DNA from: a virus
Length of the DNA: 21,262 nucleotides
Virus genome (UHGV): UHGV-0196349
Strand: one strand, 5' to 3'
The notes under the pieces are model-generated. The model ran no database searches. It was not told the origin of the DNA and was given only the letters and a program-made list of their open reading frames with translations. This document shows, piece after piece, positions 1 through 14,456 of this stretch; within the stretch, counting starts at the first letter, position 1, and every line of letters begins with the position of its first letter. The position numbers were made by a program, and so were the translations under genes.

Positions 1-251
1 TCACTCTGCCAGATGGCGCAATGCCATCTGGTATCACTTAAAGGTATTAAAAACAACTTTTTGTCTTTTTACCTTCCCGTTTCGCTCAAGTTAGTATAAA
101 AAAGCTGAACGAGAAACAGAAAACACTGTAAATATCAATATGTTATGAAGGATTTAGTCTAAATAATAGACTGCATAATACTACAAAACACAACATATCC
201 AGTCACTATGAATCAACTACTTAGATAGTATTAGTGACCTGAGGCAGAGCA

Positions 252-292
252 TTAGCGCAAGGTGATTTTTTGTCCTCTTGCGCTAATTTTTT
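252..292 (+). terminator. Candidate intrinsic terminator: perfect 10-bp stem TTAGCGCAAG/CTTGCGCTAA with a 15-nt loop, followed by T6
   Basis: Inverted repeat 252-261 / 277-286 read directly, then TTTTTT at 287-292. No ORF of 60 aa or more ends just upstream. The loop is unusually long. Confidence 0.45.
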
Positions 293-548
293 GTCAACGG
301 ACTGGGTTAGTTGAATTTACAACCATGCTCAGTATCTCGATAAGCGCAGAGAAATGATGCAGTGGGGGCGGACTGGATTGATGAGAAGGTAGAGTGATCC
401 GCCTTAACAACTATCGAAGAGCACAAAGCCTTGTGTGTCTCATAGGCTATGAAACAATCATTTTACATGGTTACTTCACTACTTCCGCACAATATGATAT
501 CGTTCACAATCTAAAAACATTAATAATTTATCCATTACCGCGGTTAAT

Positions 549-575
549 GCCCGTCGCTTCCAACGGGCCTTTTTT
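549..575 (+). terminator. Candidate intrinsic terminator: stem GCCCGT/ACGGGC, 8-nt loop, then C + T6
   Basis: Stem 549-554 / 563-568 and T-run 570-575 read directly. It sits inside the weak 61-aa ORF 394..579, which argues that ORF is not coding. Confidence 0.5.
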
Positions 576-721
576 GTAAATTATATTTTTATTACCTTAT
601 ATTAATATTGGTAATATGTCTGCATGATGTTTTATATTTAATTTCGTTGACGTCAATGTTTTTTGCCAATGTACTTACTTCTTTATGTGAGCAGTTCATA
701 TTTTTGACGCCAACGAAACAT

Positions 722-3667
722 TTAGTGCTTCCCTTCTATTAAGTCTAACCTAGCTTTTATCTTATCCATTTCTCTGCGCTGCCATGCCGCCTCGATATAG
801 AATAAGAGATCAGGCCTGACCCCCCATCTAGATCCTGCTGGCGTTATTTCAACGCGCTCAATGATGTCTTCCATTACCATCACTGGATTATCATCCTCAT
901 CAACAATGATGCTCCCGTCATTATCAGTCAGCGGCATTTCCCTTTGGCCAGTAATGACGTCATCATATACTGCGGGATAATCGTCATAGCAAAGAAACGC
1001 ATAGCGGCATGTTGTGCTTTCTTCTTCCATGAGTCCGTGAGAAATAAGAACATCACGAAGTTGCTGCGCGATTACACCATGATGTATCCTCGCCCCTTCT
1101 TCCCCCTTTATAGCGACAGCGTTCAGCCATTTATAAGCGATATACCTGACGTCACCCCAGGCATCCAGCAATGTTTCGTCAGGAGAGACCGGCTCTGTCT
1201 TTAATGTTCCGTCACTGGTAACCACAGGATTGGAGCCAAGATAAACTATCGAGAACCTGTTTCCCGGACCACCAAGAGCATTTACATTATCAAGATAAGG
1301 TTTAACATCTCCGTTCTCAAAAAGATGTTCGAGTGCGTTATATACCGCGCGACGTGGAGTACTGCTTCTGGAACCATGCAACGTTATCATTGCACCATCT
1401 GCTGAAGACGTTGTTTCACCGCCGCTAACGATTAATCTCTGAGCGGTAACATCATCAGACGGTACTTTCTTCGCAATAATGGCGTAATTACCCTCAAGTT
1501 TGACTTCCGCGCGAACTTGTCCTGATGTACCTGCATGGACAGTCAGTGACTGGACGGCAACATCATCTGTGAAATCAACGGGTACAGGAACCGTCCTCAC
1601 GCCTGACGTCGACATAAAAGTAGGAAGCGTTCTGTTAGGAGTGGCTCCGTAGACAAAATCCCTTGAAACAAATTCTTCCTGTTTAATTTTCACCCTGAAA
1701 CAATACAAATCAGCCGGGTGACCATCGTGAACATAAGGATATTTTCTGTTGTTATCCCCTATGCTCCATGGGTTTAGAAAGTCTTCCCCACCGAAAATGT
1801 AGTACAGCCAGTTGTCTTTGATACAAACTGAACCAACACCAACCGCAGAGTTAACTATTCCGCCCTGATAAATCTGATCAGTAACATTAACCCACTCTAC
1901 ATTATCCAGACTCCACTCATTGACGTTAACTCTGGTCATAAATGTTCTTGGATAATTTCCTGCATAACGGTTATCAGGTTCTCCTCCTTCCCACTCACCA
2001 AATGCGCGCTCACTGCCAAAAATAATCAGCTCATCGCCAACTTTGGCAAAAGGAAGGTTTGAGTGATGAACATTATTTGGGAAGCGAAGAGAGTTCCATG
2101 ATGTACCTAAATCAGAGCTTCTGTGCAATGAACTACCGGGTTGAGTACTTAATGTCCCCCTGGTCGTCAGATACAGAATGCCATCATAATATTTTACACA
2201 TGGCTCAGATGCATTCGCCTCATATTCTACAGGTATGCGTCTGCGAACAAAGCTACCAGGAGAACCGAAAGCATCAGAGAAATAGAGTATCCCAAGCTCG
2301 CGTGGACCAATATCACCATTATGGTAGCCAACAGCAAAACTGTTATCGCTAATCGTCGCAAAACTGTGAATCTCAGTAACAGGAGTGCTTCCGTCAACAA
2401 AAGAAGGAATAGTTCCAAGACTGGTTTTTCTCCATGGTGACGAGTGAAATGATGTACCAAAACTCCAGTATCTACCCTCGTTATTCTGATCCACATCCTG
2501 GGTATTTTGCGTCGTAACTGTAAAGGTATTTTTATCAATAACAGTAGTCACCGTCATATTCCCGGTAACATCTGTAACACCAGAGTTTGAGAAGTTGACA
2601 AAATCACCAGCAAATAATCCGTGATCAGTAATGCGAATATAAGCGACTTGCTGATTTGCTGCTTTCGTTATACCACCATAAACGCGAAGGCTGCGACTCA
2701 TTGGGCGATCCCACAACTCTGCAACCTGCAGTTTATTTCCTCTCACGGTCCGCGTCTCAATTACAGCAAAAAGGCGATTTCTGACAACCCCCATACTCAT
2801 GCAGTGATAGTTAACTGTGGGATAGTTTTCATGTAAATCTGTAAGCCATTCCGGCGTTGTCCAGGTCTTCCCGTCATCTCCTGAGCGAACCCATGCAACA
2901 TGGAGGTTATTTACACCATGGCGGTCTCCAGCCATAAAAGGCGCATAGATGACATTGTCATATACAAACGTTTTATCCTGCGTCCAGGCGTTGTACCACG
3001 GTGTATCTGTAATTTTAAATAACTCTCCCTGGATAAAATCTTCAGAAGCATAAAAAAGAGGCTGACCCGGTATTCTCTCAAATAAAAAACGAGCATTTTT
3101 AAATCGACTGACATCTGGAAGAGTTGATACTTTAAAAGTAAGCCCTCGCCCATCTATCTTTTCACCACCTGTTGCAACAGAAAGTAATTCTGATAGAGCT
3201 GATGTATCATCATGAACACCATCACCAATAGCCCCCCAACCTCTTACATCATAACTGTCTCTCCATCTTGCTATCTGAAGTTTTGGGTATTTATTCGCTC
3301 CATCTGGGTCTTCTAATTGCTGCCGTAGTTGATCAGGGTCATACTTCAGCACATTAGGAAAATAGAACTGCTGCGCACCATACGCATCATAAACAGCCAT
3401 AGAATGGCCTTGCACGGTAACGAATTTGGCAATCTGTCCGTTATATACAGGATATCCAGCAGCGTTAATGATTATTGGTTGCGAAACAGGAACGTGAGAA
3501 CCGTCTTCGTTTTCCACATAAACCTGAATCTGGTTTTCAGGATTTACAGGGTCAGTGTCAATTTTACCGATATAAATTTTGCCATTGGCTACGGCTTTAA
3601 AAGAACGCGCCATAGTGAAGAGTTGCGAAGGCATCGATACGATCACATTGGCTGTAATGTCTCTCAT
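722..3667 (-). CDS. Chimeric tailspike: P22 gp9-type N-terminal head-binding domain + endo-N-acetylneuraminidase (K1 polysialic acid endosialidase) + C-terminal intramolecular-chaperone autocleavage domain
   Basis: 981-aa ORF. The N-terminus ([10 protein letters not shown]...[33 protein letters not shown]...[14 protein letters not shown]...NVLKYDPDQ) is near-identical in pattern to the P22 tailspike head-binding domain. Asp-box sialidase motifs are present ([16 protein letters not shown]). The C-terminus has the S74-type motif [11 protein letters not shown], with a Ser...Lys dyad at the expected cleavage serine (codon at 1214-1216). ATG at 3667 with GGAG about 11 nt upstream. Confidence 0.85.
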
Positions 3668-3725
3668 TTAATTTGCTCCAGACACAAGGAATCGCCGCAG
3701 CATGGCTACGGTGAATTTTGGGCAT

Positions 3726-3748
3726 AAAAAAACCCAGCCGAAGCTGGG
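3726..3748 (-). terminator. Intrinsic terminator between ant and tailspike (CCCAGC-UUCG-GCUGGG + U7)
   Basis: On the minus strand: 6-bp GC-rich stem, UUCG tetraloop, then 7 U. It lies 20 nt downstream of the ant stop. P22 has a partial terminator at the same ant / gene 9 junction. Confidence 0.7.
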
Positions 3749-3767
3749 TCGTTGCGTTGGTTATCTG

Positions 3768-4703
3768 TCAGTAGTTATGTACTGAAGGAGGTAATTCTTT
3801 ATTCTTAAGTCTCATCCATGCGGAAAGATTCGTTGGTCCATCTGGCTCATTGATATCAACATCTCGTGTATGGTTGATTAAAACATCTCTCGCCATATCG
3901 ATAATACGGGAGAACTCATAACCGCAGTCATGACATCTGCCGGAATAGTTCGATTGAATTTGTTTCAGCGCCGGATACAGTTCGCGGAATAATGCCTGTG
4001 AGCGGTTGGCATAATCCCATAACCATACAAGGCTGTTTGCTTCTTTTGCAGAAAGCTCGTCGGTTTTCTTCTCTTGTTTGCCAATGAACTCACCTTCAAG
4101 CGGAACGCGAGCAGCAAGTGACAGTGCTTCGGTAAACTGCTCCTCACTGATTTCTTTGTACGAACATCCAAAATGGGATTTCAGTGACGACCACATGGTG
4201 ATCATCGCCTTAGCCTGTTTTTCTTTTGGCAGAGACTGACCGCGACTCATGACGAGTTGTTTAATGGCTTCCTGCTGTTCAGTGGTGATTTTACCCGGCA
4301 ACGCCTTTTTAGATTTGCGTGGGTTAACTACATAGCCTTTAGTCCAGTAGTCATGCAGCACGCTAAAGCATTCCTCCTGGTACTGAATCAGTTTATCACG
4401 GATGTCAGCACGAACTTTCTCAGGGTTGATGCTGAACAGCCATCCATTTAACTTCTTCAAAGGAAGGCAGAGTAGCTTACGAAGCTTCCCATCAGCGGCA
4501 ACCATGTTCATATGAACACAGTTGAATTTGCTAATCTGCTTCATGAGTTTTGTTTGCTGCGTTGACCAGCTCATTCCAAGGTTTTCAACGATTGGCTTCA
4601 TCGCAACATATGCAACTCCGGCAGCAATGGCGGTGATAATTTGCTGACCGTTGAATGGTACGTAAGAGGTGTTCACTGCTTCTAAAATTGCTATACTATT
4701 CAT
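3768..4703 (-). CDS. ant: Antirepressor Ant
   Basis: Translation from the internal ATG at 4703 begins [43 protein letters not shown], matching the P22 Ant N-terminus. GGAG lies 9-10 nt upstream. The ORF-track start at 4769 is an in-frame upstream extension that overlaps the preceding gene. Confidence 0.85.
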
Positions 4704-4765
4704 GTTGGTTTTTCTCCACGGATTTACTGACAACCGAAGCCCTGACTGTTCCCGCAGTTGGGGCT

Positions 4766-4969
4766 TCAACTTTCTGATCTATCAGTTATATCTTTCCCTT
4801 CATATACTTCACCTATATTGCTAATGCTGGCAGAACATCCAAGATGCTTGTATCTTATGATGTCCAACACGCAGTCACTACACAGCATCCGACCTGTTTC
4901 TTTAGAGTAAATGTATGTTTGATCAGCGTCTGATTCGCTAATGCCGCAGAAACAACATTCTTTACTCAT
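4766..4969 (-). CDS. Small Cys-rich protein (CxC...CxxC, putative zinc-ribbon) inserted between arc and ant
   Basis: 67-aa [39 protein letters not shown]... Its ATG overlaps the arc stop as ATGA (4969-4966), suggesting translational coupling. No recognised homolog. P22 itself has no gene at this position. Confidence 0.5.
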
Positions 4970-5118
4970 ACCATTACCCCCTCTCTCTTCAAGCTGTCTA
5001 TCAGGCGCTTGATAACCTCTGAGTTAAACGACCTGCACTCTTCCTTTGCCCTGCTACCTATAGCATCCTTTAACGACTGCGGCATCCTTACCAAAATCTT
5101 ACTTATTTCTTTCTCCAT
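4966..5118 (-). CDS. arc: Arc-type ribbon-helix-helix repressor
   Basis: 50 aa from the ATG at 5118 (GGAGGG SD 5-6 nt upstream): MEKEISKILVRMPQSLKDAIGSRAKEECRSFNSEVIKRLIDSLKREG. The motif ..RSxNSE... and overall alignment match P22 Arc. The ORF-track start at 5154 is a TTG extension. Confidence 0.8.
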   Translation of the reverse strand: MEKEISKILVRMPQSLKDAIGSRAKEECRSFNSEVIKRLIDSLKREGVMV

Positions 5119-5232
5119 GTTACCCTCCACACAAACAACTCTTTTCGAATACAAAAGATATCAAAGTGAGTATATCTAGTCAAAATTTTTTTGCATACAC
5201 TTTGCTATCAAATTGAATACCAAAGGTGTGAT
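5119..5232. promoter_or_regulatory. Divergent immI control region (Pant leftward, Pmnt rightward) with candidate operators
   Basis: Minus strand: -35 TTGACT (5183..5178), 17-bp spacer, -10 TATCTT (5160..5155). Inverted repeat AGATAT-N10-ATATCT (5156..5177) overlaps the spacer and -10. A second inverted repeat TCTTTT-N7-AAAAGA (5140..5158) lies over the predicted start site. This mirrors the P22 O-arc / O-mnt layout, but the sequences differ from P22 operators. Confidence 0.4.
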
Positions 5233-5481
5233 ATGGCAAAGGGTGTGTCAATTTCTCCAACTACGGTAAGAATCCCTGAATCTTTACGCGAGGCTCTTGC
5301 TGTCAGAGCATCAAAAAATGGTCGCTCTGTTAACTCCGAGATCGTCATGATTTTGCAAGCCGCGATTGATGAAGATAGGTCGCCAAAGTCAGTTGAGTCA
5401 TTTGCTCAGCAAGAAGCTGACAAATTCAAAGAGGCGCTGCTTGAGACGCTAAAGACCATGTATGGTAAGGATGAAAAATAA
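5233..5481 (+). CDS. mnt: Mnt-type ribbon-helix-helix maintenance repressor
   Basis: 82 aa from the ATG at 5233: MAKGVSISPTTVRIPESLREALAVRASKNGRSVNSEIVMILQ...LETLKTMYGKDEK. The RHH core ..NGRSxNSE.. and P22 Mnt-like length fit. It is transcribed opposite to arc-ant, as in P22 immI. Confidence 0.8.
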   Translation: MAKGVSISPTTVRIPESLREALAVRASKNGRSVNSEIVMILQAAIDEDRSPKSVESFAQQEADKFKEALLETLKTMYGKDEK

Positions 5482-6017
5482 TGCTGCACACAATTCATTT
5501 CTTATGCCCCGTTAACACTGCCACTGTTGGGCAACTTCAGAACCACTGTCTCACCGCATTATCTCAAGGCGCAACTGAATTAAATATCCATATATCAAGT
5601 CAGGGAGGGGAAACTGCCGCTGGCTTTACTGCGTATAACTTTCTTAAGTCACTCCCTGTTACCGTTAGAACTCACAACATAAGCAATGTTGAATCCATAG
5701 CTAATATCGTTTTCCTGGCTGGCTCAGAACGTTTCGCAAACCCATTATCAAGATTCCTGTTACATCCTCTATTATGGTGCTTTGCCTCCCCAGCCGCCGA
5801 CCATGCCAGATTGAGAGAGTACGGGAAATGCCTCGATAACGATCTTGATCGCTTCGTTGAGACGTTCAATATCGACATCGGAACCCATATTAGGTGGGCA
5901 TCCCTGATAGCAGACTCGACCATTTTGGATGCTAACAAGGCTCTTGAGCATGGCATAATTAATTCCATAAAAACTGCAAGGCTGGTATCCAATCAGGCAA
6001 ACTGGTGGGTTGTTTGA
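5481..6017 (+). CDS. ClpP-fold (Clp/crotonase-like) serine protease-like protein, coupled to mnt
   Basis: 178 aa. The start overlaps the mnt stop (TAATG). It aligns by eye to the ClpP core: IHISSQGGE ~ YINSPGG; AAGFTAYNFL ~ TAGMSIYDTM; NVESIANIVFLAG ~ GQAASMGAFLLTAG (nucleophile Ser in register); RFLLHPL ~ RVMIHQPL (His in register). It is shorter than ClpP and lacks the N-terminal axial region. Confidence 0.7.
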   Translation: MLHTIHFLCPVNTATVGQLQNHCLTALSQGATELNIHISSQGGETAAGFTAYNFLKSLPVTVRTHNISNVESIANIVFLAGSERFANPLSRFLLHPLLWCFASPAADHARLREYGKCLDNDLDRFVETFNIDIGTHIRWASLIADSTILDANKALEHGIINSIKTARLVSNQANWWVV

Positions 6018-6046
6018 TGGGTAAATCATGATTACTCCTTATAAAA

Positions 6047-6082
6047 AACCCACCTGACGGTGGGTTAATTTTTACCTTTTTT
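6047..6082 (+). terminator. Intrinsic terminator after the ClpP-fold gene
   Basis: Stem AACCCACC/GGTGGGTT (6047-6054 / 6059-6066) with a TGAC loop, followed by AATTTTT and a second T6 (6077-6082). It lies 30 nt after the stop. Confidence 0.55.
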
Positions 6083-6155
6083 GGACCATATTGACTACTC
6101 ATAAAATGAGATCAATATTTAATCGCCCAATAACGGGTGCATGTTGAGGTATATC

Positions 6156-6335
6156 ATGGCGAAAAAACCAGGTGAAAACACAGGAAAAAACGGCGGAATA
6201 TACCAAGAAGTTGGCCCACGCGGCGGTAAGAAAGACAATTTTGCCACCGTCAAGGACAACGAAAGGCTTCCACCAACAACAAAGCCAGGTCATGGCTGGG
6301 TATTGGATAAGCGAACTCCAGACAGCAAAAAGTAA
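6156..6335 (+). CDS. Small basic Gly/Lys-rich protein, possibly YjzC-like family
   Basis: 59 aa from the ATG at 6156 (GAGGT 7 nt upstream): MAKKPGENTGKNGGIYQEVGPRGGKKDNFATVKDNERLPPTTKPGHGWVLDKRTPDSKK. The GxYxExG...W...KR pattern recalls YjzC-like small proteins; this is from memory and unverified. It is followed by a hairpin + T-run. Confidence 0.5.
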   Translation: MAKKPGENTGKNGGIYQEVGPRGGKKDNFATVKDNERLPPTTKPGHGWVLDKRTPDSKK

Positions 6336-6340
6336 TACTC

Positions 6341-6363
6341 AAGCCGGGTCACTCCGGCTTTTT
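6341..6363 (+). terminator. Weak intrinsic terminator (AAGCCGG-loop-CCGGCTT + short T-run)
   Basis: Stem 6341-6347 / 6354-6360, 6-nt loop, then TTT. The stop codon of the convergent minus-strand ORF lies in the loop. Confidence 0.4.
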
Positions 6364-6714
6364 GATATGTCGCTCGCAGAACTCAACAAGCCTGCTCATT
6401 AAGTAGCAGTAAGTCTCATTGGCTCTTCCTGGTTCAACATCAACACCGACCCTTGAGCAGATATCGAATGCCATGTGAGCGCACTCATGGGCAATAGTAG
6501 ATAGTTTGCCATTGAACACGCCTATCACATGCAAAACACCATTCTCGCTGCTCATTGTATGAGACGCTCCGTTGGCGTCCGAGTCATGCACGTCAACGCC
6601 AAGTTTTTGATGCAGGCGTTGCCATTCTGGAAAGTCTCTACAAAACACAATTGTACCGCTCTCAAAGAGCGGAACGAGCATCTTTGGTACGTTTCCAATG
6701 TTAACTTTTTTCAT
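6349..6714 (-). CDS. Small HExxH-motif protein (putative minimal zinc-metallopeptidase-like)
   Basis: 121 aa from the ATG at 6714 (AGGA 4 nt upstream): MKKVNIGNVPKMLVPLFESGTIVFCRDFPEW...STIAHECAHMAFDICSRVG... It contains a single HExxH motif. The family is not recognised. Its 5' end abuts the divergent plus-strand gene, about 30 bp between starts. Confidence 0.5.
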   Translation of the reverse strand: MKKVNIGNVPKMLVPLFESGTIVFCRDFPEWQRLHQKLGVDVHDSDANGASHTMSSENGVLHVIGVFNGKLSTIAHECAHMAFDICSRVGVDVEPGRANETYCYLMSRLVEFCERHIKKPE

Positions 6715-6744
6715 GGTATCCTGCTCAAAACTAAGGAGCTTGGT

Positions 6745-7134
6745 GTGAAGCAATTTCTTGCTGCTATGTTCTTATTCATATCTTTTGGGGCTACAGCAGA
6801 GTGCTGGGTCGTTGGAGATATGCGCGGAATAAGCTATTCAGAACGAAATAATTTCCATCCGGAAGAAGATGGTTTTAGTGGAACATTCATCATTAAGACA
6901 AGCGGTGAAGATGCCAGCATCACATATTCTGGGACAGATGCGGGCGGCATGGCTTACAAAGCATTGTCTAAAAACTCCATCATAGGAATCGGCGCGAATG
7001 GCGAAACTCAACGCGTTATCGACTCATGGGTAATACATCCTACTGGAACAGTTTTAATGTCAAAAACCATTTCTGGTTATGGGAATATGGATTCAACCAA
7101 AGCTTTTGTTGGAAAAGTAAAAAGAAAATGTTAA
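6745..7134 (+). CDS. Signal-peptide (secreted/periplasmic) protein of unknown function
   Basis: GTG at 6745 with TAAGGAG 6 nt upstream. The N-terminus MKQFLAAMFLFISFGATA|ECWVV has a basic n-region, a hydrophobic core and an A-x-A-like cleavage site; it is not a lipobox. The mature protein is about 111 aa, Gly/Ser/Thr-rich, with Cys near both ends. The in-frame ORF-track extension to 6529 overlaps the opposite-strand gene and is discounted. Confidence 0.55.
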   Translation: MKQFLAAMFLFISFGATAECWVVGDMRGISYSERNNFHPEEDGFSGTFIIKTSGEDASITYSGTDAGGMAYKALSKNSIIGIGANGETQRVIDSWVIHPTGTVLMSKTISGYGNMDSTKAFVGKVKRKC

Positions 7135-7158
7135 CGATTGAATCCAATTCCCCATACG

Positions 7159-9000
7159 TTACTGCTGTGTTGCCTCAGTAGCAAGCAGCGGCCTGATGGC
7201 ATTTGCAGCGTTACTCAACGCTCTTTCATAGGCTGGTGTTCCTGCTTTGGTGTTTGCCAGACGTAAGAGCGCATTCCTTGCTGCTTTGGACTCATACAAG
7301 CGCATCATTGCACCGAAACCAGCCTCAAGCCCCATTGATACGCCAAGAGTCGCAGTTGCGCCAATCGTCCTTATCCTGTTGGCTTGCGATTGCCCCGTCT
7401 GAGTTACTACATTTGCGGTGTCTGACCTTGCTGTTTGCTGCAGAACTTCATGAAGAGCATCAAGTTCTTTCATGTGCTTTCCAGAAAAAATAGTGTTGTA
7501 AATTTCACCGCCTGACTGAGATTTCAGCTTATTAACTTCAGTGATGAACTTGGCTGGAGAGTCACCGGCCTTTTCCGCTATTTTGCTGACGTAAGCTGCA
7601 CGCATAGCATCTTTCCCTTTATCATCCAGTGCGCTCCAGATTCGTTTCACGTCAGATGGTTTTCTGCTTAATACAACGGTATTTATAAGTTCAGGACTGG
7701 CTTCACTGCTTGCCTTGTTGAGTTTGTTAGCAATGTTTTTATTAAGCACCTTATTATAAACGTTTGCATAATCGGAATTTGCTTTAAGGTATTTTGCTGC
7801 GTCTGATGCACCGAGGTTTTTAGCAACTGCGTTACGAAGGTCTTTTGACATTGCATTCTCTACCATATTGGTAGCTGCTTTTGCCTGGTTGGGGAAGACC
7901 ATAGCATCTCCCTGAACATTAGATCTAAATGCTGTTCTGTGCTGACGCAAGAGATCAAACGTAACATCCAAATCAGTTGCAGGGTTTGCTAATTCTTCAC
8001 GTAGGTTACGCAAGGATGTAAGCAGGCTTTGATTGGCAGACGTCCCAAGTCGTTCCTGTCTTGCGATCGCTGTATTCAGAGCATTCATGGTATTTGTGGT
8101 ATCAACTGCGGCATTACCCATTTTATTGGTGACGTCATTGATAACAGCGCCAGCGGCATCCTTCCTCCCCCTTAACGTGGTGGTCAGAGATTTCACCACA
8201 TCATCAGGGTTGTACTCACCAAAACGGTCAAAATAATTACTTACCAGCTTACTACGCGTTGCATATTGCTCCGCTCGCTTTGAGCCTGTCCCGAGCAAAG
8301 CCCCCTCGGCATCCTGAGTAAGGCCGCGAGTGAAAGCATTTTTCGGCGGGATAACATCAGATGTCATTGGTGTCACGCCCATCGATTCTGATGTGGCAAT
8401 TTTCTTCGCCACTTCTGGCGCAATATCACCTTTTATAGCCGTTATTCCACGCCCTATTCCCTTTGCTGCGGCGGAAAGAACACCCTGAGCGGCAAGGTTA
8501 ACTCCGGCATTTTTAGCTGCATTTTGTGCGAAATCGCCTTTCTGATTTGCGGCCTCTGCCAGTGATCCAATAGCCATGCTTCCTGCCGTTCCAACTCCTG
8601 GAACTAAATACCCACCAATTGTTTCACCGGCTTGTGCGTAGGGGTCTGTCGGTCTGTCTACTGGACGATAAACATCATCCAAAACCTTGGGTCCACCAAG
8701 CCCCTGACTGATTGCATTAATCAGACTTGCGCCACCCTGCAATACGTCAAATGGTATGTTTACCAGACCACGACCAGCCTGTTCTGCAATTTGCTCTGCA
8801 CTTTGACCACCAGTGAGCCAATCGCCAGCTTGTTGCATCAATGATGGTTCTTCCCGTGTTGGTGCATTATTGGCCTGATTAACTGTTTGTTGCTGAACAG
8901 CCTGACCAGCAAAATACTCATCAATGGCGGTGCCAATATCTTCGGTGCTCGTACCATCAGGAAAGGTAAATGTCTTACCGTTTGCAGTTACTTTCATCAT
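7159..9000 (-). CDS. gp16: Ejection (injection) protein gp16
   Basis: 613 aa, [30 protein letters not shown]..., recognised as P22 gp16-like. The ATGA overlap with the gp20 stop and the synteny 7-20-16 both fit. Confidence 0.85.
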
Positions 9001-10463
9001 TCCACCGTAAATTGAATGCCTGATTTTGAGGTATATGATCCGGATTGACTCTGCTGCTGTTGGGTATTTGTCGGTTGTTGGCTATTGCTCTGTTGTTGAC
9101 TATTTGCAGCACTTGAAACCACCAAAGCATCATAAACGCGACCAGACTGACCACGTAATGAGTTATATTGGCCCTGCATTTTTCGCATTTTTGTTTCAGT
9201 AGCAGCCTTGGAATCACCGGGCTGAGGGAGGTACATTTTGGAATACTCCTGCATCTCTGGCAGAGTAATTGCTGCACCTGTTTCTGGGCGCAAAATTGCA
9301 TACAAGGCGTCTCTCGCATTTACCATATATTGCTGCTCCGCTGGTGATAGGCTTAAATTTGCAATAGTTCCATCACCAAGAGAGCGATTTATTAATGCAA
9401 CTCGCTTAGGGTCAATGCTTTTACTAAGCTGATTCATTGAGTCCATTGAATCTTTTAATCGCAAAGCAAATCCCGCCGCCTTCTTGGAACCCTCATTAGC
9501 CTTATCTATGATGCTTTGCGCTTGTGGCAAGCTAATTGGTTTAATGCCATCACCAGATATAGGTTGGTTTAGTTTTCCGGCTTCCTCGCTGCCATCGGTG
9601 TAATACTTAGTTACCGAGCCATCAGGATTGGTTTCAACCTTAAGTAATTTCTTAGCATTGGGATTAATTCCCGCCGCTGCCGCAAATGCCGCTGCACCAT
9701 CTGGATCTACCTTTAACATTTGCGCGTACTGATTGTAATTCTGCATTGCGGCTGTTGGTGCATATGCTGACGTTAACGCATTTGCTCGGCTAATATCCTG
9801 CCCTCTCGCCTGAAGTGCTTCACCAGCCTGATTGCTGCGGATTGTCTCTGCCAGTCTGCCTCGGTCAATCTCACGACCAGCCATCTTGTCCTGAACATTG
9901 AAGTAATCAATCGGACCAAGAGCAGCCATCCCAAGGTGATCAACAAACTCACCAAATCCTGAAGGATTCTGCTGATACATCTGAGCAACGTTATTAGGGT
10001 CAACACCGACGCGAGTCAGTTCCTTGGCGTTGTTTTGCAGCCATGATTGCATTGCTTCTGGAGACGAGGCCGCAAGGCGTGCGCCAGCCGCTAAGGTGCC
10101 GATAGAATTGCGCTGGTCTTCATCAATGAATCCCATGCCTTTGCGAACAGATTCAATCTGGTCTGGATATTGAGTAGCCAACTGACGCAAAGCACCGCGA
10201 TCACCAGACGCATAAGCATTAGCGTACGCCTGCTGAAATTCTTTCTGCCGCTGAGCCTGCTTTTCCTGCTGAAACACCCCTGCAATACCTGAAAGGCCTT
10301 GCAAAGCAGTCAGCCCAACATTGTTAGCGCCTGAACGCTCAATATCATTGTTCTGCCTGATAAGCTGAAGCGTATTGCCGATGTCATTTACGCTCGGAGC
10401 GTTTGAGTTGACACCACCGATACCAGCCAACAATCCGCCATTTGTTCCTTGCCAAGTAGCCAT
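8997..10463 (-). CDS. gp20: Ejection protein gp20
   Basis: 488 aa. Position and size match P22 gp20. The C-terminal tail is Q/S-rich. Confidence 0.8.
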
Positions 10464-10472
10464 GATTACCCC

Positions 10473-11165
10473 TTAAAACAACGAGCCAAGCAGGCCAAGT
10501 CCGCCGCCAATTGCCGCACCTAATCCAGTGCCAAGTCCTGGAACAATAGAGCCAAGAGCAGCGCCAGTCATAGCCCCTGAAGCTCCGCCGCTAATTGCTG
10601 TCTGAAGGCCTGATGGTTTATTGGCATTAGCAGCGGCAAGAGCCGCACTTTGCTGCGAAATCTGACTCATGTTGTTGGCATATGTCTGCCCGGCGTTTGC
10701 CTGACCTTGCAGCGCACCAAGGCCAATGTTTGCCAGGTTGTTGTAGTTGTTCATCTGACCAGACAGCCACTGCTGACCAAGCGTTGGTGCGATTGTTGCT
10801 AACTGATTACCGGTTGCAGTGGAACCCAATCCACCTGTTGCTTCCGCTGCCGCCAGACTCTGATAGCGAGCCTGACCAGCAAGATCTTTGTACTGCTGAG
10901 AGTTGTAATACTGGTTAAGTGCCTGCCCCTGACCTTCTAAACTGGAAAGGTTCTGAAGCTGGTTAACATACTGCTCCGCAAGAGGCGTGAACGGAGCAAG
11001 GTTTTTCATGATCGTCTGCCACTGCTGATGTTGCAGGTCTGCGGCATACTTCTGAGCTTCTGCTGCATACTTTGCGCTTTTATCGGAGCCACCCTTCCCG
11101 CCTTTTTCAGGGTGATAAGGTTCCTCGCCGCGCAGTTTTCTGCCCAGCTTAAATGCATATAACAT
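10473..11165 (-). CDS. gp7: Ejection protein gp7
   Basis: 230 aa, MLYAFKLGRKLRGEEPYHPEKGGKGGSDK..., recognised as P22 gp7-like. The C-terminus is Gly/Ala-rich. Confidence 0.85.
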   Translation of the reverse strand: MLYAFKLGRKLRGEEPYHPEKGGKGGSDKSAKYAAEAQKYAADLQHQQWQTIMKNLAPFTPLAEQYVNQLQNLSSLEGQGQALNQYYNSQQYKDLAGQARYQSLAAAEATGGLGSTATGNQLATIAPTLGQQWLSGQMNNYNNLANIGLGALQGQANAGQTYANNMSQISQQSAALAAANANKPSGLQTAISGGASGAMTGAALGSIVPGLGTGLGAAIGGGLGLLGSLF

Positions 11166-11167
11166 GG

Positions 11168-11623
11168 CTATCTCCCGTGATTCAGGAAGTCGATTAGTTC
11201 TTCGCGTGTGGCGCTGTAAAAAGTCACGTCATCCACGCCTTTGAAGTATTTCTTGATGGTTCCTACACGCTTAAGGCCAATAATTGCGCAGTACATCTGC
11301 CCGTGGCGGAATTTGCGTGCAGCGAACGATGTGACGCACTGAACGGTGGTGTTAGTCAGAATGTATCGCCAGAACGCCAGCCCGATTTCCTTGCTGAATC
11401 CGCGAACCTCTGGCAGGTACATGGCGTGGCAATCGAATGTAAGCGGCTGAATCTCCTGGTAGTAAACAATGCCGCCAAACTGACCGTGCACGTTAACCTC
11501 AAAGTAACGGCATTCAGGCTTGTAGTCGTATCCATCACCGTTGTTGCTTCCAGCAATAATGTCAGGGTGATTTCCTACTGCTTCTATCAGGTCGATGTTT
11601 CGCGTTGGTTTGAATGTAATCAT
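11168..11623 (-). CDS. gp14: gp14-like protein (P22 gene 14 position)
   Basis: 151 aa. Assigned by synteny between gp26 and gp7 and by size; the sequence itself was not independently recognised. Confidence 0.65.
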   Translation of the reverse strand: MITFKPTRNIDLIEAVGNHPDIIAGSNNGDGYDYKPECRYFEVNVHGQFGGIVYYQEIQPLTFDCHAMYLPEVRGFSKEIGLAFWRYILTNTTVQCVTSFAARKFRHGQMYCAIIGLKRVGTIKKYFKGVDDVTFYSATREELIDFLNHGR

Positions 11624-12324
11624 CAGTCAATCAGCCCATGTAATCTAAGTGCTGTTTCAAGCGCCAGAATACGCTGCCGCGCCTGCTGCAAACCTGTAGC
11701 GAGAGCTGCGACTTCGGATTGTGTGTACGTAGTGCCGACAGTGTATGACTGGTTAGCGTTGAATGAGCCAAGAAGTGGCGTACCTGTGGCTGCAGTCCAT
11801 CCGGTATTTCTTGCTCCAACAACCTGAATTCCATCAACTGAATATGATGTTTTTACATCCAGCGGTGACTCAAGAGACTGCAATTCGGTTACGGTTTTCG
11901 ATACGTAATCACTCTTAATGCCAGAGACATCGTTTTCTACGTCATCCAGTCTTTGGTCAACAGTGACCAGATGCGCCTGAATATCGATAACCTCATCCAG
12001 CAAGTAATCAACATCGCTACGCAGTACGACTATCTTCCCTTCGGCAGTTGTTAACCTGACCTCAAGTAGATTTATCGCTTTTGTGTTTGCGGTGATTCTT
12101 GCGTCGTGATCAGCCAGTTCGACATCCTGTTCATCGTTTTTCACCTGTGCATCGTAAGCGCCCTGACCAGCCTGATTTGCCTTCCCGGCAATTGCGCCGA
12201 CATCAGCCCCCTGATTAATGACATACAACAGGTAAGACTGGCTGAAGATATTGCGTGGAAGGATTGATGTATCGAGCCGCGTCGCCTGCACAATAACAGG
12301 AGTGTTGAGATTCGAATCCGCCAT
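11623..12324 (-). CDS. gp26: Tail needle protein gp26
   Basis: 233 aa, [36 protein letters not shown]...[30 protein letters not shown]..., strongly P22 gp26-like over the N-terminal part, with the same length as P22 gp26. Confidence 0.9.
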
Positions 12325-13742
12325 TACTCAATCCTTATCTGAGCGCCAGAAAGAGTTACAGGTGACTTCGTGATAACGCGCAATTTGAAGCCAACATTTT
12401 TCCTGATTCGCCCGACACGCTTCCACAAAACGCGTTTGTCGTAAACGAACGGTTCATTCTGCTCAATCATCTGCTCACGACCATAATTTATGCCGTCAGT
12501 GGTTGCAGAGAGGAACAGGCGGTCGGCGTACTGCGCAACTCCAGTTGACGATTCAACTTCAAGGTCGAAAACTCTGGCGTTATCCGCTTTGAACAACGGA
12601 GTAAACAGCAGGTGTTCCTGTTGCTTGTCGTACTGGCTGCTGATATCGAACTGCAATTTTCCTGTCATCGATTCAAGCTTATCGCCGCACGTTATCTGAT
12701 TGCCTTCGTAAATGAAGTCGATAGCGCGGTACACATCGTCATACAGGCCTGTTTTCAGCACACACCATTGCGGACCATTGGCACTTGAAGATGCGTCGTA
12801 CACCAGAACATGGCGCGGAAGGTGGATAATCAGCAACTCATGCGCATCAAATCGCAGCGATTCCATCACGCCATCAGCCAGTTCATCAGCAGTGTAGGAA
12901 CGAAGGATTTTCTCAATGCTCGCGCTGGCGATTGGTGATACCTGACCGGAGCCGATGATATACACAGACGGCGCACCTGTTGCCGGATTGCTGATGAACG
13001 CATACGAATCAGCAAACGGCGTTTTGCAGTAGGTTCCGGCGATTCCTTTTTGCACCATCAGCGATGGCTGTGCGACATACAAAGCGGCACCAACAGTGGT
13101 TGCACCTGTCAGGGAGAAATATTCAATCGTTGATGAACCAAAGCATACGATGAAGTCTCGCCATGTTCCGATGCCGATGATGCCGTCAGGCTGCGATTCT
13201 GCGCGATATTGTGCGCTGTAGCGGTCAGGATGAGATTCGTCTTCAAGGTCAGTGATAAACCATGAATCAGTACCGTCTTTTGACCACGCATAACGCCCAC
13301 GTAATCGCGTAATGTCGCGGACTGAGCCTAACTCATACTGCGTGAATCCGCTGTCTGTAGGCCAGTTTGAGACGGTTTTAACCGTACCATCATAGCGATA
13401 CTCGACCAGTTGACCATTAACGCCTACAGCCTGAGATGTTCGACCATGCGCCATTGATACGCGACCACTTCCGGCGACGTCACCGACTTCACTTTCTCCT
13501 TTGTACAGCTTACCACCACATACGCGATAAACAGCATTCTGCGCCATGTTGTACTCGACGCCCCGCGATACGCCGTTCACATCAGAACGTTTGGCAATGC
13601 CCGGGAATGAGCGAAGATATCCGCTGCTGTTCAGGATTTCTTTGGGTGTAGCCAACATATTCACTGGCAGATAGTCGATATAGTCGGCGTTTCGAAAGTC
13701 TTTGCCGACACCTTTCATAAGCGGAAGTTGCTGAATCGGCAT
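12324..13742 (-). CDS. gp10: Tail accessory (plug) protein gp10
   Basis: 472 aa, [49 protein letters not shown]..., recognised as P22 gp10-like with the same length. Confidence 0.9.
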
Positions 13743-14242
13743 TATTCGCTCCCGTTATCGCAAGGTTCCTTTCGGTGGAAGTAATTCCAACCGTTCCACT
13801 TCGCCAACTGGTTACCACTACCAACAGGCATACGGTTTGGATAACCGGACTTACATTTAGCGGCTTTTGCTCTGTCCATTGCAGACAGTTTGACGAGTCG
13901 CTCTTTCCCGTATCTGGCAGTGGTTATAAGTTTTGCAGACGCTTCCAGCGCATAATCTGGAGCAATGCGGCAGGCAAGGTTGAAAATGACGGCATTTATA
14001 GCGTTATTTGATAATCCGTGCTCATCTCCCGGATCTGGAGCGACATCTGCATCAGCAAAAATGTAGCCAACGTTGATACCAGGTGACACATCACCGCCAA
14101 GCCATTCAGCCATCATCATTTCAAGGTCGTTGACGCCATCTTCCATGGACTGAGGTTCGACATCGGTTAACGTGGCATTTGATGCCACACCGAGCTTACG
14201 TAATGCCGCAAGAACTAAATCACCCTTCGTTGTCAGGTTCAT
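13742..14242 (-). CDS. gp4: Head completion / tail accessory protein gp4
   Basis: 166 aa from the internal ATG at 14242: [41 protein letters not shown]..., matching the P22 gp4 N-terminus and length. The ORF-track start at 14356 is an upstream extension in another gene's space. Confidence 0.85.
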
Positions 14243-14456
14243 CTGCTGCCGCCTTAGGTTTTCGACCAGGCTTTTTACGCTGTTTTTCTTCTGGCTCTGG
14301 CTCTGGCTCTGCAACGTCCTTAAGAAGGTCATCGGGATGTGCAAACCAACCAGCATCCAGATATTCCTGAATCTCTTCGGCTTTCACGATTTCAAAGTCG
14401 TAGCCAACGCCTTTCCACTTCTTCATGTCGCCATGACGAAAGATCATGTGTGTCAT
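14220..14456 (-). CDS. Small acidic/basic-tailed hypothetical protein between coat and gp4
   Basis: 78 aa from the ATG at 14456 (GGAG 6 nt upstream, immediately after the coat terminator U-tract): [68 protein letters not shown]... It overlaps the gp4 start by about 23 nt. Confidence 0.55.
14291..14311. repeat. Hexanucleotide tandem repeat (CTGGCT)x3.5, encoding (EP)n on the minus strand
   Basis: ctggctctggctctggctctg read directly. It lies inside the small ORF 14220..14456 and the unit length keeps the frame. Confidence 0.8.

Follow-up and report, generated by a model that had tools for sequence, protein, structure and literature searches.

A CUS-3-type endosialidase tailspike in a neuO-less P22-like prophage at the lambda attachment site

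The tailspike gene and its modules

The window—the whole stretch of DNA analyzed here—comprises 21,262 nucleotides of the virus genome UHGV-0196349. Toward its left end, an intact, ATG-started ORF fills the gene interval listed in Table 1 exactly and encodes a tailspike of 981 amino acids. It is read from the minus strand, a point on which the initial annotation was silent. Compared with siaK1 of CUS-3 (CP000711.1), the gene exhibits 99.2% nucleotide identity over 100% of its length, with the nucleotide differences concentrated at both gene ends. The product has the same length and domain order as CUS-3 SiaK1 (ABQ88383.1) and shares 971 of the 981 residues with it; the ten substitutions, going from the window to CUS-3, are R2T, P43T, P121T, A207V, R309S, D366G, V480A, M967I, D968E, and K969R. 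The same 981-residue protein is found, without any exchange, on at least 24 public contigs; GCA_903973315.1 and ERZ28623905 scaffold_13 are examples of its sources. The gene is the already well-described CUS-3-type tailspike of K1-capsule-specific P22-like prophages, as the initial annotation had recognized from its architecture. This architecture has been in print since 2006; the combination of P22 adaptor, endosialidase, and chaperone in CUS-3 is described in PMC5380687, and the CUS-3 record lists endo-α-sialidase activity as direct-assay evidence (PMID 16689790, Stummeyer et al. 2006).

Table 1. Features of the tailspike gene and of its surroundings, in positions of the window
Feature	Position	Strand	Remarks
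Lambda-type attR	91..330		15-bp core at 91-105, then P arm
Empty neuO site	630..640		single copy of 11-bp repeat TTTTATATTTA
Tailspike gene (siaK1 allele)	722..3667	minus	981 codons + stop
Intramolecular chaperone/autocleavage domain, aa 818-981 + stop	722..1216	minus	Pfam PF13884 Peptidase_S74, aa 818-878
Triple-β-helix stalk (End_tail_spike), aa 663-817	1217..1681	minus	Pfam PF12219, E 7e-78
Catalytic six-bladed β-propeller (End_beta_propel), aa 213-662	1682..3031	minus	Pfam PF12217, E 2e-232
End_beta_barrel insertion in propeller, aa 324-406	2450-2698	minus	Pfam PF12195
Endosialidase N-terminal extension (End_N_terminal), aa 146-212	3032..3232	minus	Pfam PF12218, E 8e-37
Linker, already endosialidase-type, aa 114-145	3233..3328	minus	endosialidase tblastn matches begin at aa 113/114
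Head-binding (tail-hub adaptor) domain, P22-type, aa 1-113	3329..3667	minus	Pfam PF09008, 1-113 of 113, E 2e-66
Terminator-like hairpin between ant and tailspike start	3731..3750	minus	consensus match only
Antirepressor gene ant (P22_AR_N + P22_AR_C)	3768..4769	minus	immediately upstream of tailspike
Phage_stabilise (gp10)	12324-13742		Pfam
P22_Tail-4 (gp4)	13742-14356		Pfam

Six Pfam domains follow each other in canonical order, all of them far above the gathering cut-offs. The N-terminal region, which had been described as P22 gp9-like over about 115 residues, indeed belongs to this type: besides the Pfam match, solved structures align over residues 1 to 118 (Sf6 gp14) and 1 to 127 (P22 gp9), and sequence identity amounts to 66% with P22 gp9 over residues 1 to 133 and to 89% with Sf101, a close relative of Sf6, over residues 1 to 124. 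Matches to P22-like tailspikes mostly stop between residues 113 and 133, and no similarity to P22 gp9 is found past about residue 133. The domain is closed by the motif DPDQ (residues 110-113), in line with the YDPDQ hinge at which it ends in P22-like tailspikes. A module junction is present as proposed, but it lies at residues 113/114 just after DPDQ and not near codons 115 to 120; it may represent a recombination hotspot. Directly behind it, the linker is 56% identical to K1F gp17 residues about 214 to 245. The complete endosialidase domain set (PF12218, PF12217, PF12195, and PF12219) is matched end to end, the endoNF structures 1v0e and 3gvl align over residues 145 to 817 (E = 0), and the chaperone structure 3gw6 aligns over residues 698 to 979.

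In P22, Sf6, and HK620, as in the window, the tailspike gene follows ant and closes a P22-type virion operon. Their receptor-binding parts, in contrast, are O-antigen endorhamnosidase or endoglucosaminidase β-helices that lack a C-terminal S74 chaperone. A non-sialidase fold of this kind, e.g., an O-antigen endorhamnosidase, was also considered for the central domain, and the chance of it is negligible: Pfam, PDB, and tblastn yield endosialidases only for residues 114 to 817, the P22 endorhamnosidase matches the protein over residues 1 to 127/133 only, and no point in favor of this assignment was found. In tblastn, the central part shows 99.3% amino acid identity to CUS-3 SiaK1 and 60 to 66% to the enzymes of K1F, phi92, and other K1 phages; the matches listed include neither a rhamnosidase nor a member of any other tailspike family. 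The alignment to a non-sialidase family that had been named as speaking against an endosialidase was thus looked for and did not appear. In a scan of one genome per species, no close relative of the catalytic domain was confirmed.

Catalytic residues and the autocleavage site

A structurally solved point of comparison is endoNF (gp17; 1V0E, 3GVL, and 3GW6) of the lytic, T7-like phage K1F, which is homologous from residue 114 to the C terminus with 65% identity in the catalytic part and 51% in the chaperone. Its N-terminal adaptor differs, being of the T7 gp17 type and comprising about 213 residues as opposed to the 113-residue P22 head-binding domain found here. In addition, the window protein contains a seven-residue propeller insertion (FVDGSTP) relative to endoNF. 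The mapped catalytic and dyad residues as well as the cleavage position are common to both proteins. Sialidase Asp boxes (S-x-D-x-G-x-x-W), whose presence had been claimed, were located twice, as SGDDGKTW at residues 262 to 269 and SSDLGTSW at residues 517 to 524; K1F has the aligned boxes at 362 and 610. The endoNF residues H350, R549, E581, R596, and R647 correspond to the identical residues H250, R456, E488, R503, and R554; their roles are described in a K1F deep-mutational-scan preprint (PMC12632334). Further constrained endoNF positions (Q330, D331, H527, S528, K585, N699, R866, and D994) are all conserved, and K410, which is dispensable during infection according to the same scan (PMC12632334), is replaced by Gly310. 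With 99% identity to CUS-3 SiaK1, the tailspike would be expected to hydrolyze α-2,8-polysialic acid. At a probability of roughly 0.93, its sequence identifies it as the polysialic acid capsule-digesting enzyme of an E. coli K1 phage and as an allele of CUS-3 SiaK1, and no observation speaks against this assignment.

At the C-terminal end, the S74-type motif suspected earlier is borne out by the Peptidase_S74 domain beginning at residue 818. The motif TSDGTLK occupies residues 817 to 823, so that the numbering of Ser818 and Lys823 is correct, and both residues, for which a conservation check had been suggested, are retained relative to Ser911 and Lys916 of endoNF; G956 likewise has its counterpart in G864. 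A Ser/Lys pair (SDARDK) is also carried by the solved spike 9vvr, and 3gw6 has an alanine at the serine position. A Ser-Lys dyad mechanism, with the lysine five residues after the serine of the scissile bond, is set out in the MYRF paper (PMC3742443). One position is not identical: N912 of endoNF, reported to be essential in K1F, corresponds to Asp819. An aspartate likewise follows the serine in 9vvr, and human MYRF has an aspartate (D579) at the equivalent position, where the exchange D579A impaired processing (PMC3742443). The solved mature endoNF chains stop at the threonine that aligns with Thr817, and the K1F record has the mature peptide end at residue 910, which equals Thr817 in the tailspike. 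The scissile bond is accordingly predicted between codons 817 and 818 (Thr817|Ser818, window positions 1216/1217), and the C-terminal domain would probably be released autoproteolytically.

The prophage around the gene

The surrounding prophage is distinct from CUS-3: it is a mosaic without neuO, inserted at the lambda attachment site adjoining ybhB/bioA. The attR delimits the prophage on the 3' side of the tailspike gene, with the chromosome (ybhB side) to the left. Its region is 86 to 95% identical to attP sequences annotated in phage 434 and in lambdaviruses, and we take its 15-bp core to be the lambda att core sequence. A tRNA scan returned no tRNA gene in the window, so that the left end cannot be an attachment site of the tRNA type. 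CUS-3, on the other hand, has neuO downstream of its tailspike gene, is inserted at argW with an adjacent IntS-type integrase, and has CUS-3-type capsid genes; the capsid genes of the window are of the P22 type. In CUS-3, the 843-bp neuO cassette is flanked by the repeat TTTTATATTTA; here the cassette is absent, as it is from the related contigs that reach past the tailspike gene. The second insertion site, besides argW, had been noted in 2022.

The likeness to CUS-3 is confined to blocks. Upstream of the tailspike gene, ant and the intergenic sequences are the same in both, and a CUS-3-like block spanning positions 630 to 4442, ant included, is 97.7% identical. On related contigs ant is called with 311 amino acids, so that its true start probably lies inside the TTG-started ORF listed here. 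The hairpin between the two genes consists of an 8-bp stem, five pairs of which are G-C, with a T run behind it. A promoter scan of the window gave 11 hits compared with 11.5 expected from shuffles, i.e., no enrichment, and hence no promoter is claimed. Besides gp4 and gp10, the window holds the full P22-type virion set including portal, coat, scaffold, and ejection proteins; a 233-residue ORF occupies the place of gp26 and matches no Pfam family. Among the virion assembly genes, identity to CUS-3 (about 90%) is limited to positions 10303 to 13831. The genes for terminase, portal, scaffold, and coat show no DNA-level match to CUS-3 and resemble IME10 and APC_JM3.2 more closely.

Such a mosaic could also be read as a decaying or cryptic prophage in which the tailspike gene is an intact passenger without a current role in adsorption. 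According to PMC9659370, decay is frequent among CUS-3-like prophages, and related copies of the gene are frameshifted (CE10) or disrupted by insertion sequences (phiv205-1, NCTC11151, and VTB96815v). The early/lysogeny half of the prophage lies outside the window, leaving about half visible, and the CUS-3-type integrase gene is down to an 84-bp remnant. This remnant is, however, explained by module shuffling and does not speak for a decay of this element. From the small terminase to the tailspike, the virion ORFs all have their full length and match Pfam families strongly, the exact protein recurs on the public contigs mentioned above, and the intact lambda-type attR points to a separate integrase of lambda type at the end that is not visible. 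A mere passenger role is thus rather unlikely.

Host, mode of action, and cassette exchange

A K1-encapsulated host had been deduced from the enzyme. The polysialyltransferase gene neuS is present in 329 of 5,426 complete E. coli genomes, and the union of genomes with endosialidase or neuS comprises 330; a single genome carries the endosialidase without neuS. This co-occurrence strongly supports the K1 host and holds as a statistical relation. In a search of the same complete genomes for the source of the window, none covered at least 80% of it (best 77%). The capsule locus of the host was not found within the window or on a matching 134-kb scaffold. Where matching records name the host, it is a K1 strain (CE10 O7:K1, RS218, UTI89, APEC O1:K1, or a K1 serovar isolate), and this bears on a different substrate, too: the enzyme might target another sialic acid polymer (the alternating α-2,8/2,9 polymer of K92 or an O-acetylated one), in which case the host would not necessarily be a classical K1 strain. 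The phi92 endosialidase with its K92 host is a 60% identical homologue, and divergent neuS genes (80-90% identity) occur in 14 genomes. Three divergent-neuS genomes in the spread listing (H295-H297) are devoid of the endosialidase, however, and none of the ten residues differing from the characterized CUS-3 SiaK1 falls on a mapped catalytic position, which together with the K1 strains makes another polymer highly improbable. The phage is very probably a P22-like temperate podovirus infecting E. coli K1, and its tailspike a receptor-destroying one.

The sequence data establish the ORF, its domain order, the near-identity to CUS-3 SiaK1, the conserved residues, the virion genes around it, and the co-occurrence with neuS; the mode of action can be outlined from the solved homologues. 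As in these, the polypeptide would trimerize, and the N-terminal domain would dock the trimer on the P22-type tail hub gp4/gp10/gp26. The β-propeller, with the five catalytic residues aligned above, would cut α-2,8-polysialic acid, while the β-barrel and the stalk would grip the polymer, so that the virion can penetrate the K1 capsule and reach the outer membrane. The last 164 residues would act as intramolecular chaperone for the triple-β-helix stalk and then be self-removed by the Ser818-Lys823 dyad, leaving a mature spike of 817 residues. For this copy, activity and cleavage are thus likely by analogy, and adsorption is presumably capsule-dependent, as with its homologues.

The CUS-3 tailspike serves as a standard example of how tailspike modules are exchanged. 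A shared cassette is seen in the tail fiber ORF7 of ZX5 (vB_EcoP_ZX5, MW722083.1), a temperate, epsilon15-like Uetakevirus: over nucleotides 522 to 2914 of the window gene, identity is 99.5%, and the two proteins show full or almost full identity from residue about 171 to about 965, which is the same endosialidase and chaperone cassette. The near-identity starts inside the endosialidase N-terminal extension at about residues 171 to 174. The N-terminal adaptor of ORF7, which comprises about 230 residues and was likened to the T7 tail fiber by its authors (PMC9782041), is unrelated, and the last ~15 residues differ as well. We consider the odds even that the ~2.4-kb cassette is currently moving as a unit between temperate podovirus genera within K1 E. 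coli, with joints at about codons 171 to 174 and about 10 to 15 codons before the stop rather than at the DPDQ hinge. If so, the window would stand for a separate K1 phage lineage at the lambda attachment site, one that lacks neuO, has P22-type capsid genes, and may still be active, as opposed to a degraded CUS-3.

The discovery value of the tailspike itself is small, and the neuO-less mosaic and the cassette shared with ZX5 are the only, mildly new points. The gene nevertheless indicates a K1-capsulated host very reliably, as the single exception among the complete genomes illustrates. The neuO-less variant further shows that counting neuO underestimates the number of endosialidase-bearing prophages in K1 strains. 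Finally, the occurrence of one cassette on P22-like and epsilon15-like adaptors points out natural break-points, which could guide the engineering of capsule-targeting tailspikes.

Architecture and functional residues of the tailspike

The tailspike gene is the single long frame placed at exactly 722..3667 by the mechanical ORF list of the window, as claimed by the initial annotation; read from the minus strand, it opens with ATG and encodes 981 residues. All six Pfam domains of the protein score far over their own gathering scores, and the Asp boxes, the TSDGTLK motif, and the numbering of Ser818 and Lys823 previously read from the sequence are all found in the protein. A megablast search of 50,697 phage records aligns the gene across its full length with phage CUS-3 (CP000711.1) at 99.2% identity, and 10 of 981 residues differ between the two proteins. 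The matching gene is annotated in CP000711.1 as siaK1, endosialidase tailspike protein, with direct-assay evidence for endo-alpha-sialidase activity (PMID 16689790).

Features of the tailspike protein (aa) and of its neighborhood (window positions)
Feature	Position	Strand	Remark
Head_binding	aa 1-113		Pfam
End_N_terminal	aa 146-212		Pfam
End_beta_propel	aa 213-662		Pfam
End_beta_barrel	aa 324-406		Pfam; inserted within End_beta_propel
End_tail_spike	aa 663-817		Pfam
Peptidase_S74	aa 818-878		Pfam
Asp box SGDDGKTW	aa 262-269		
Asp box SSDLGTSW	aa 517-524		
TSDGTLK motif	aa 817-823		includes Ser818 and Lys823
Terminator-like hairpin, strong	3731-3750	-	between ant and tailspike start
Terminator-like hairpin, strong	549-568	+	downstream of integrase remnant, faces 3' end of tailspike gene

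Among solved structures, those of endoNF (endosialidase NF, gp17 of phage K1F; 1V0E and 3GVL) match aa 145-817 with E = 0, the endoNF chaperone complex (3GW6) aa 698-979, Sf6 gp14 aa 1-118, and P22 gp9 aa 1-127. Three segments were also searched separately. For the N-terminal segment, similarity to P22-like tailspikes begins at residue 1 (P22 66%, Sf101 89%; further matches are tailspikes of epsilon34, Sf6, APSE, and Sodalis phage), which together with the P22 gp9 and Sf6 gp14 structures bears out the proposed gp9-like N terminus. The central segment (aa 116-817) is 99.3% identical to each of CUS-3, phiv205-1, and 720R6, 96% to phage vB_EcoP_ZX5 (ZX5, MW722083.1), and 60-66% to K1F, phi92, the K1G/K1H group, and numerous lytic phages recovered on K1 strains. 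Endosialidases alone, with no endorhamnosidase or other tailspike family, appear among the matches listed. Since the endoNF structures agree, the central segment is confirmed as an endosialidase, and a non-sialidase central domain, named beforehand as the refuting outcome, is ruled out. At the protein level, the endosialidase segment also matches four Mannheimia phage records. The C-terminal segment (aa 818-981; K1F 51%, phi92 55%, K5 lyase 32%, Bacillus phage GA-1 gp12 29%) belongs to a widely shared chaperone family, in line with the self-cleaving chaperone proposed for it. By every sequence-testable criterion, the protein belongs to the endosialidase, P22 head-binding, and S74/ICA families.

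Residues were mapped by alignment with K1F gp17, translated from AM084414.1. The key catalytic residues of endoNF, H350, R549, E581, R596, and R647 (PMC12632334), correspond to H250, R456, E488, R503, and R554 and are all identical, as are Q330, D331, H527, S528, K585, N699, R866, and D994, which are named as mutation-intolerant or conserved in endoNF (PMC12632334). EndoNF K410, a position at which substitution is tolerated in real infection (PMC12632334), is Gly310 in the window protein. Bacteriophage endosialidases undergo autocleavage by a Ser-Lys dyad once trimerized, and N912 and G956 are reported to be essential in K1F (PMC3742443). Herein, Ser818, Lys823, and Gly864 are the counterparts of Ser911, Lys916, and Gly956, so that the dyad is conserved as predicted; N912 maps to Asp819, which is not identical. 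An Asp is also found at the equivalent position of human MYRF (D579), where exchange to Ala impaired processing (PMC3742443), and directly after the Ser in the solved tailspike 9vvr. In the K1F record, the mature peptide ends at residue 910 and the chaperone begins at 911; the bond aligned with this boundary, Thr817/Ser818, is the predicted cleavage site.

By homology, the protein would form a trimeric spike docked onto the P22-type tail hub through its first 113 residues. The propeller would hydrolyze alpha-2,8-polysialic acid, with the barrel and stalk holding the polysialic acid chain meanwhile, and the last 164 residues would act in folding the triple beta-helix before releasing themselves by autocleavage. 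Capsule-dependent adsorption is reported for K1 phages (PMC9659370, PMC13001214).

Module joints and probable cassette exchange

The joint between adaptor and enzyme lies at aa 113/114, right behind DPDQ (110-113): alignments with P22-like tailspikes mostly stop at aa 113-133, and those with endosialidases start at 113/114. The junction of the initial annotation hence exists near the place named, but slightly before codon 115-120. At aa 113/114, this adaptor is fused with many unrelated receptor-binding domains; the alignments are consistent with a preferred joint, and we infer that a mechanistic "hotspot" may lie here. The literature uses exactly this example of an adaptor/enzyme joint (PMC5380687).

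The tail fiber of ZX5, an epsilon15-like temperate Uetakevirus, shares the endosialidase and chaperone cassette of the window gene (ZX5 2303-5422; 99.5% nucleotide identity to gene nt 522-2914), and its protein is essentially identical from aa ~171 to ~965, but it has an unrelated N-terminal adaptor of ~230 residues and another C-terminal tip. Compared with ZX5, two further joints are thus located near codons 171-174 and 966-971. Such identity on an unrelated adaptor implies a very recent cassette exchange between podovirus genera, represented by the P22-like window prophage and the epsilon15-like ZX5. Compared with CUS-3 siaK1, the 26 nucleotide differences are unevenly spread, with an almost invariant enzyme core: 12 fall into gene nt 5-361 (head-binding domain; binomial P = 2e-5) and six into gene nt 2853-2907 (C-terminal tip; P = 1e-4). 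Because of this clustering, the gene ends differ in history from the enzyme core.

Virion module and integration site of the prophage

Strong Pfam matches in the window comprise the small and large terminase, P22 portal, scaffold, and P22 coat, as well as gp4, gp10, gp14, gp7, and gp20. The virion predicted to match the P22-type adaptor is supplied by the window itself. A 613-aa ORF (7159-9000) matches PF26808 (P22 gp16) in the precomputed table for identical contigs and gave no match in our own Pfam search. Upstream of the tailspike gene lie ant (P22_AR_N/C) and two Arc-family genes, an arrangement also found in the P22 immI region. In this immI-like region, an Arc/ribbon-helix-helix ORF (5191-5481, +) is directly followed by a 178-aa ClpP-like protease ORF (5481-6017, +); the pair is absent from CUS-3 at that position but occurs in CE10 and strain 10035776-3. 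Pfam gives no match for three ORFs, 4766-4969 (-), 6349-6753 (-), and 6529-7134 (+), located between ant and the ejection-protein genes. Of these, the 67-aa ORF is Cys-rich (CxxC ... CxxC), which suggests a small zinc-binding protein.

Only 630-4442 (ant and siaK1, 97.7%) and 10303-13831 (gp7 to gp10, ~90%) are CUS-3-like, and the closest phages for the P22-type terminase, portal, scaffold, and coat genes are IME10 and APC_JM3.2 (~95-96%). By these matches, the prophage is not CUS-3 itself and is CUS-3-like only in the tailspike block. In CUS-3, an 843-bp neuO cassette is bracketed by the 11-bp direct repeat TTTTATATTTA; the window lacks this stretch and has a single TTTTATATTTA copy at 630-640, reflecting either an exact deletion of the cassette or an insertion site that is unoccupied. 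The final 84 bp of a CUS-3/IntS-type integrase gene remain at 315-398 (+), flanked by the att arm and the tailspike region, and the same remnant is annotated in CE10 as a partial pseudogene.

A 15-bp core at 91-105, read directly in the sequence, is the reverse complement of GCTTTTTTATACTAA, which we take to be the lambda att core. The arm after it shares 86-95% identity with the attP annotated in phage 434 and lambdaviruses, and the chromosome beyond the core is ybhB-bioA. The left end of the window (1-330) is a lambda-type attR with the P arm; the prophage therefore joins a lambda-type integration site to a P22-like virion module. The exact 981-aa protein is found on at least 24 public contigs, including a 134-kb metagenome scaffold that is 100% identical to window 1-13667. 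In the six places shown with contigs reaching beyond the gene, the stop is followed after 721 bp by a PBP-family gene (ybhB), with no neuO gene in between. No complete Escherichia coli genome covers at least 80% of the window, so its mosaic is absent from finished genomes; all of its parts are already known.

Probable K1 host and novelty of the system

The window contains only ~90 bp of chromosome, so the capsule genes of its host cannot be read from it. The K1 locus of E. coli O7:K1 CE10 (kpsFEDUCS-neuSECABD-kpsTM) provided a probe for neuS, the polysialyltransferase gene, which is found in 329 of 5,426 complete E. coli genomes, one copy each. A combined probe, joining endosialidase-specific gene nt 600-2400 to neuS, finds 576 places in 330 of these genomes; hence exactly one genome has an endosialidase without neuS. 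This is strain 998 (NZ_CM132938.1, ~3,348,403-3,352,116), the sole listed row with the tailspike as its only place; loss or switching of the capsule following lysogeny, or an assembly gap, may explain it. Its tailspike shows the neuO-less, attλ-side arrangement of the window. The tailspike is the best place in 33 of 60 rows sampled evenly from the combined-probe ranking, extrapolating to ~180 carriers, or ~55% of neuS-positive genomes; three sampled genomes with divergent (~87%) neuS have no endosialidase in the combined-probe listing. Owing to this co-occurrence, the earlier claim of a K1 host is very well supported as a statistical statement across complete genomes, not for the window's own host. 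Some K1 genomes contain several endosialidase copies (up to five places by the combined probe; PU-1 has four), and several copies are disrupted, by a frameshift in CE10 or by IS elements in phiv205-1, NCTC11151, VTB96815v, and M15.

A 2006 publication already described the architecture, its evolutionary reading as a module exchange of P22-like with T7-like phages, and the enzyme activity, and reviews have taken them up since (PMC5380687); with the full-length siaK1 match, this description confirms the architecture as that of CUS-3. The ZX5 authors recognize both an endosialidase and an intramolecular chaperone in their ORF7 and leave CUS-3 unmentioned (PMC9782041). Given the 2006 publication, the tailspike finding is already known. 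A modest residual novelty lies in a neuO-less, lambda-att, P22-capsid lineage with a CUS-3 spike and in the evidence that the cassette was exchanged very recently with an epsilon15-like phage, through joints away from the DPDQ hinge.
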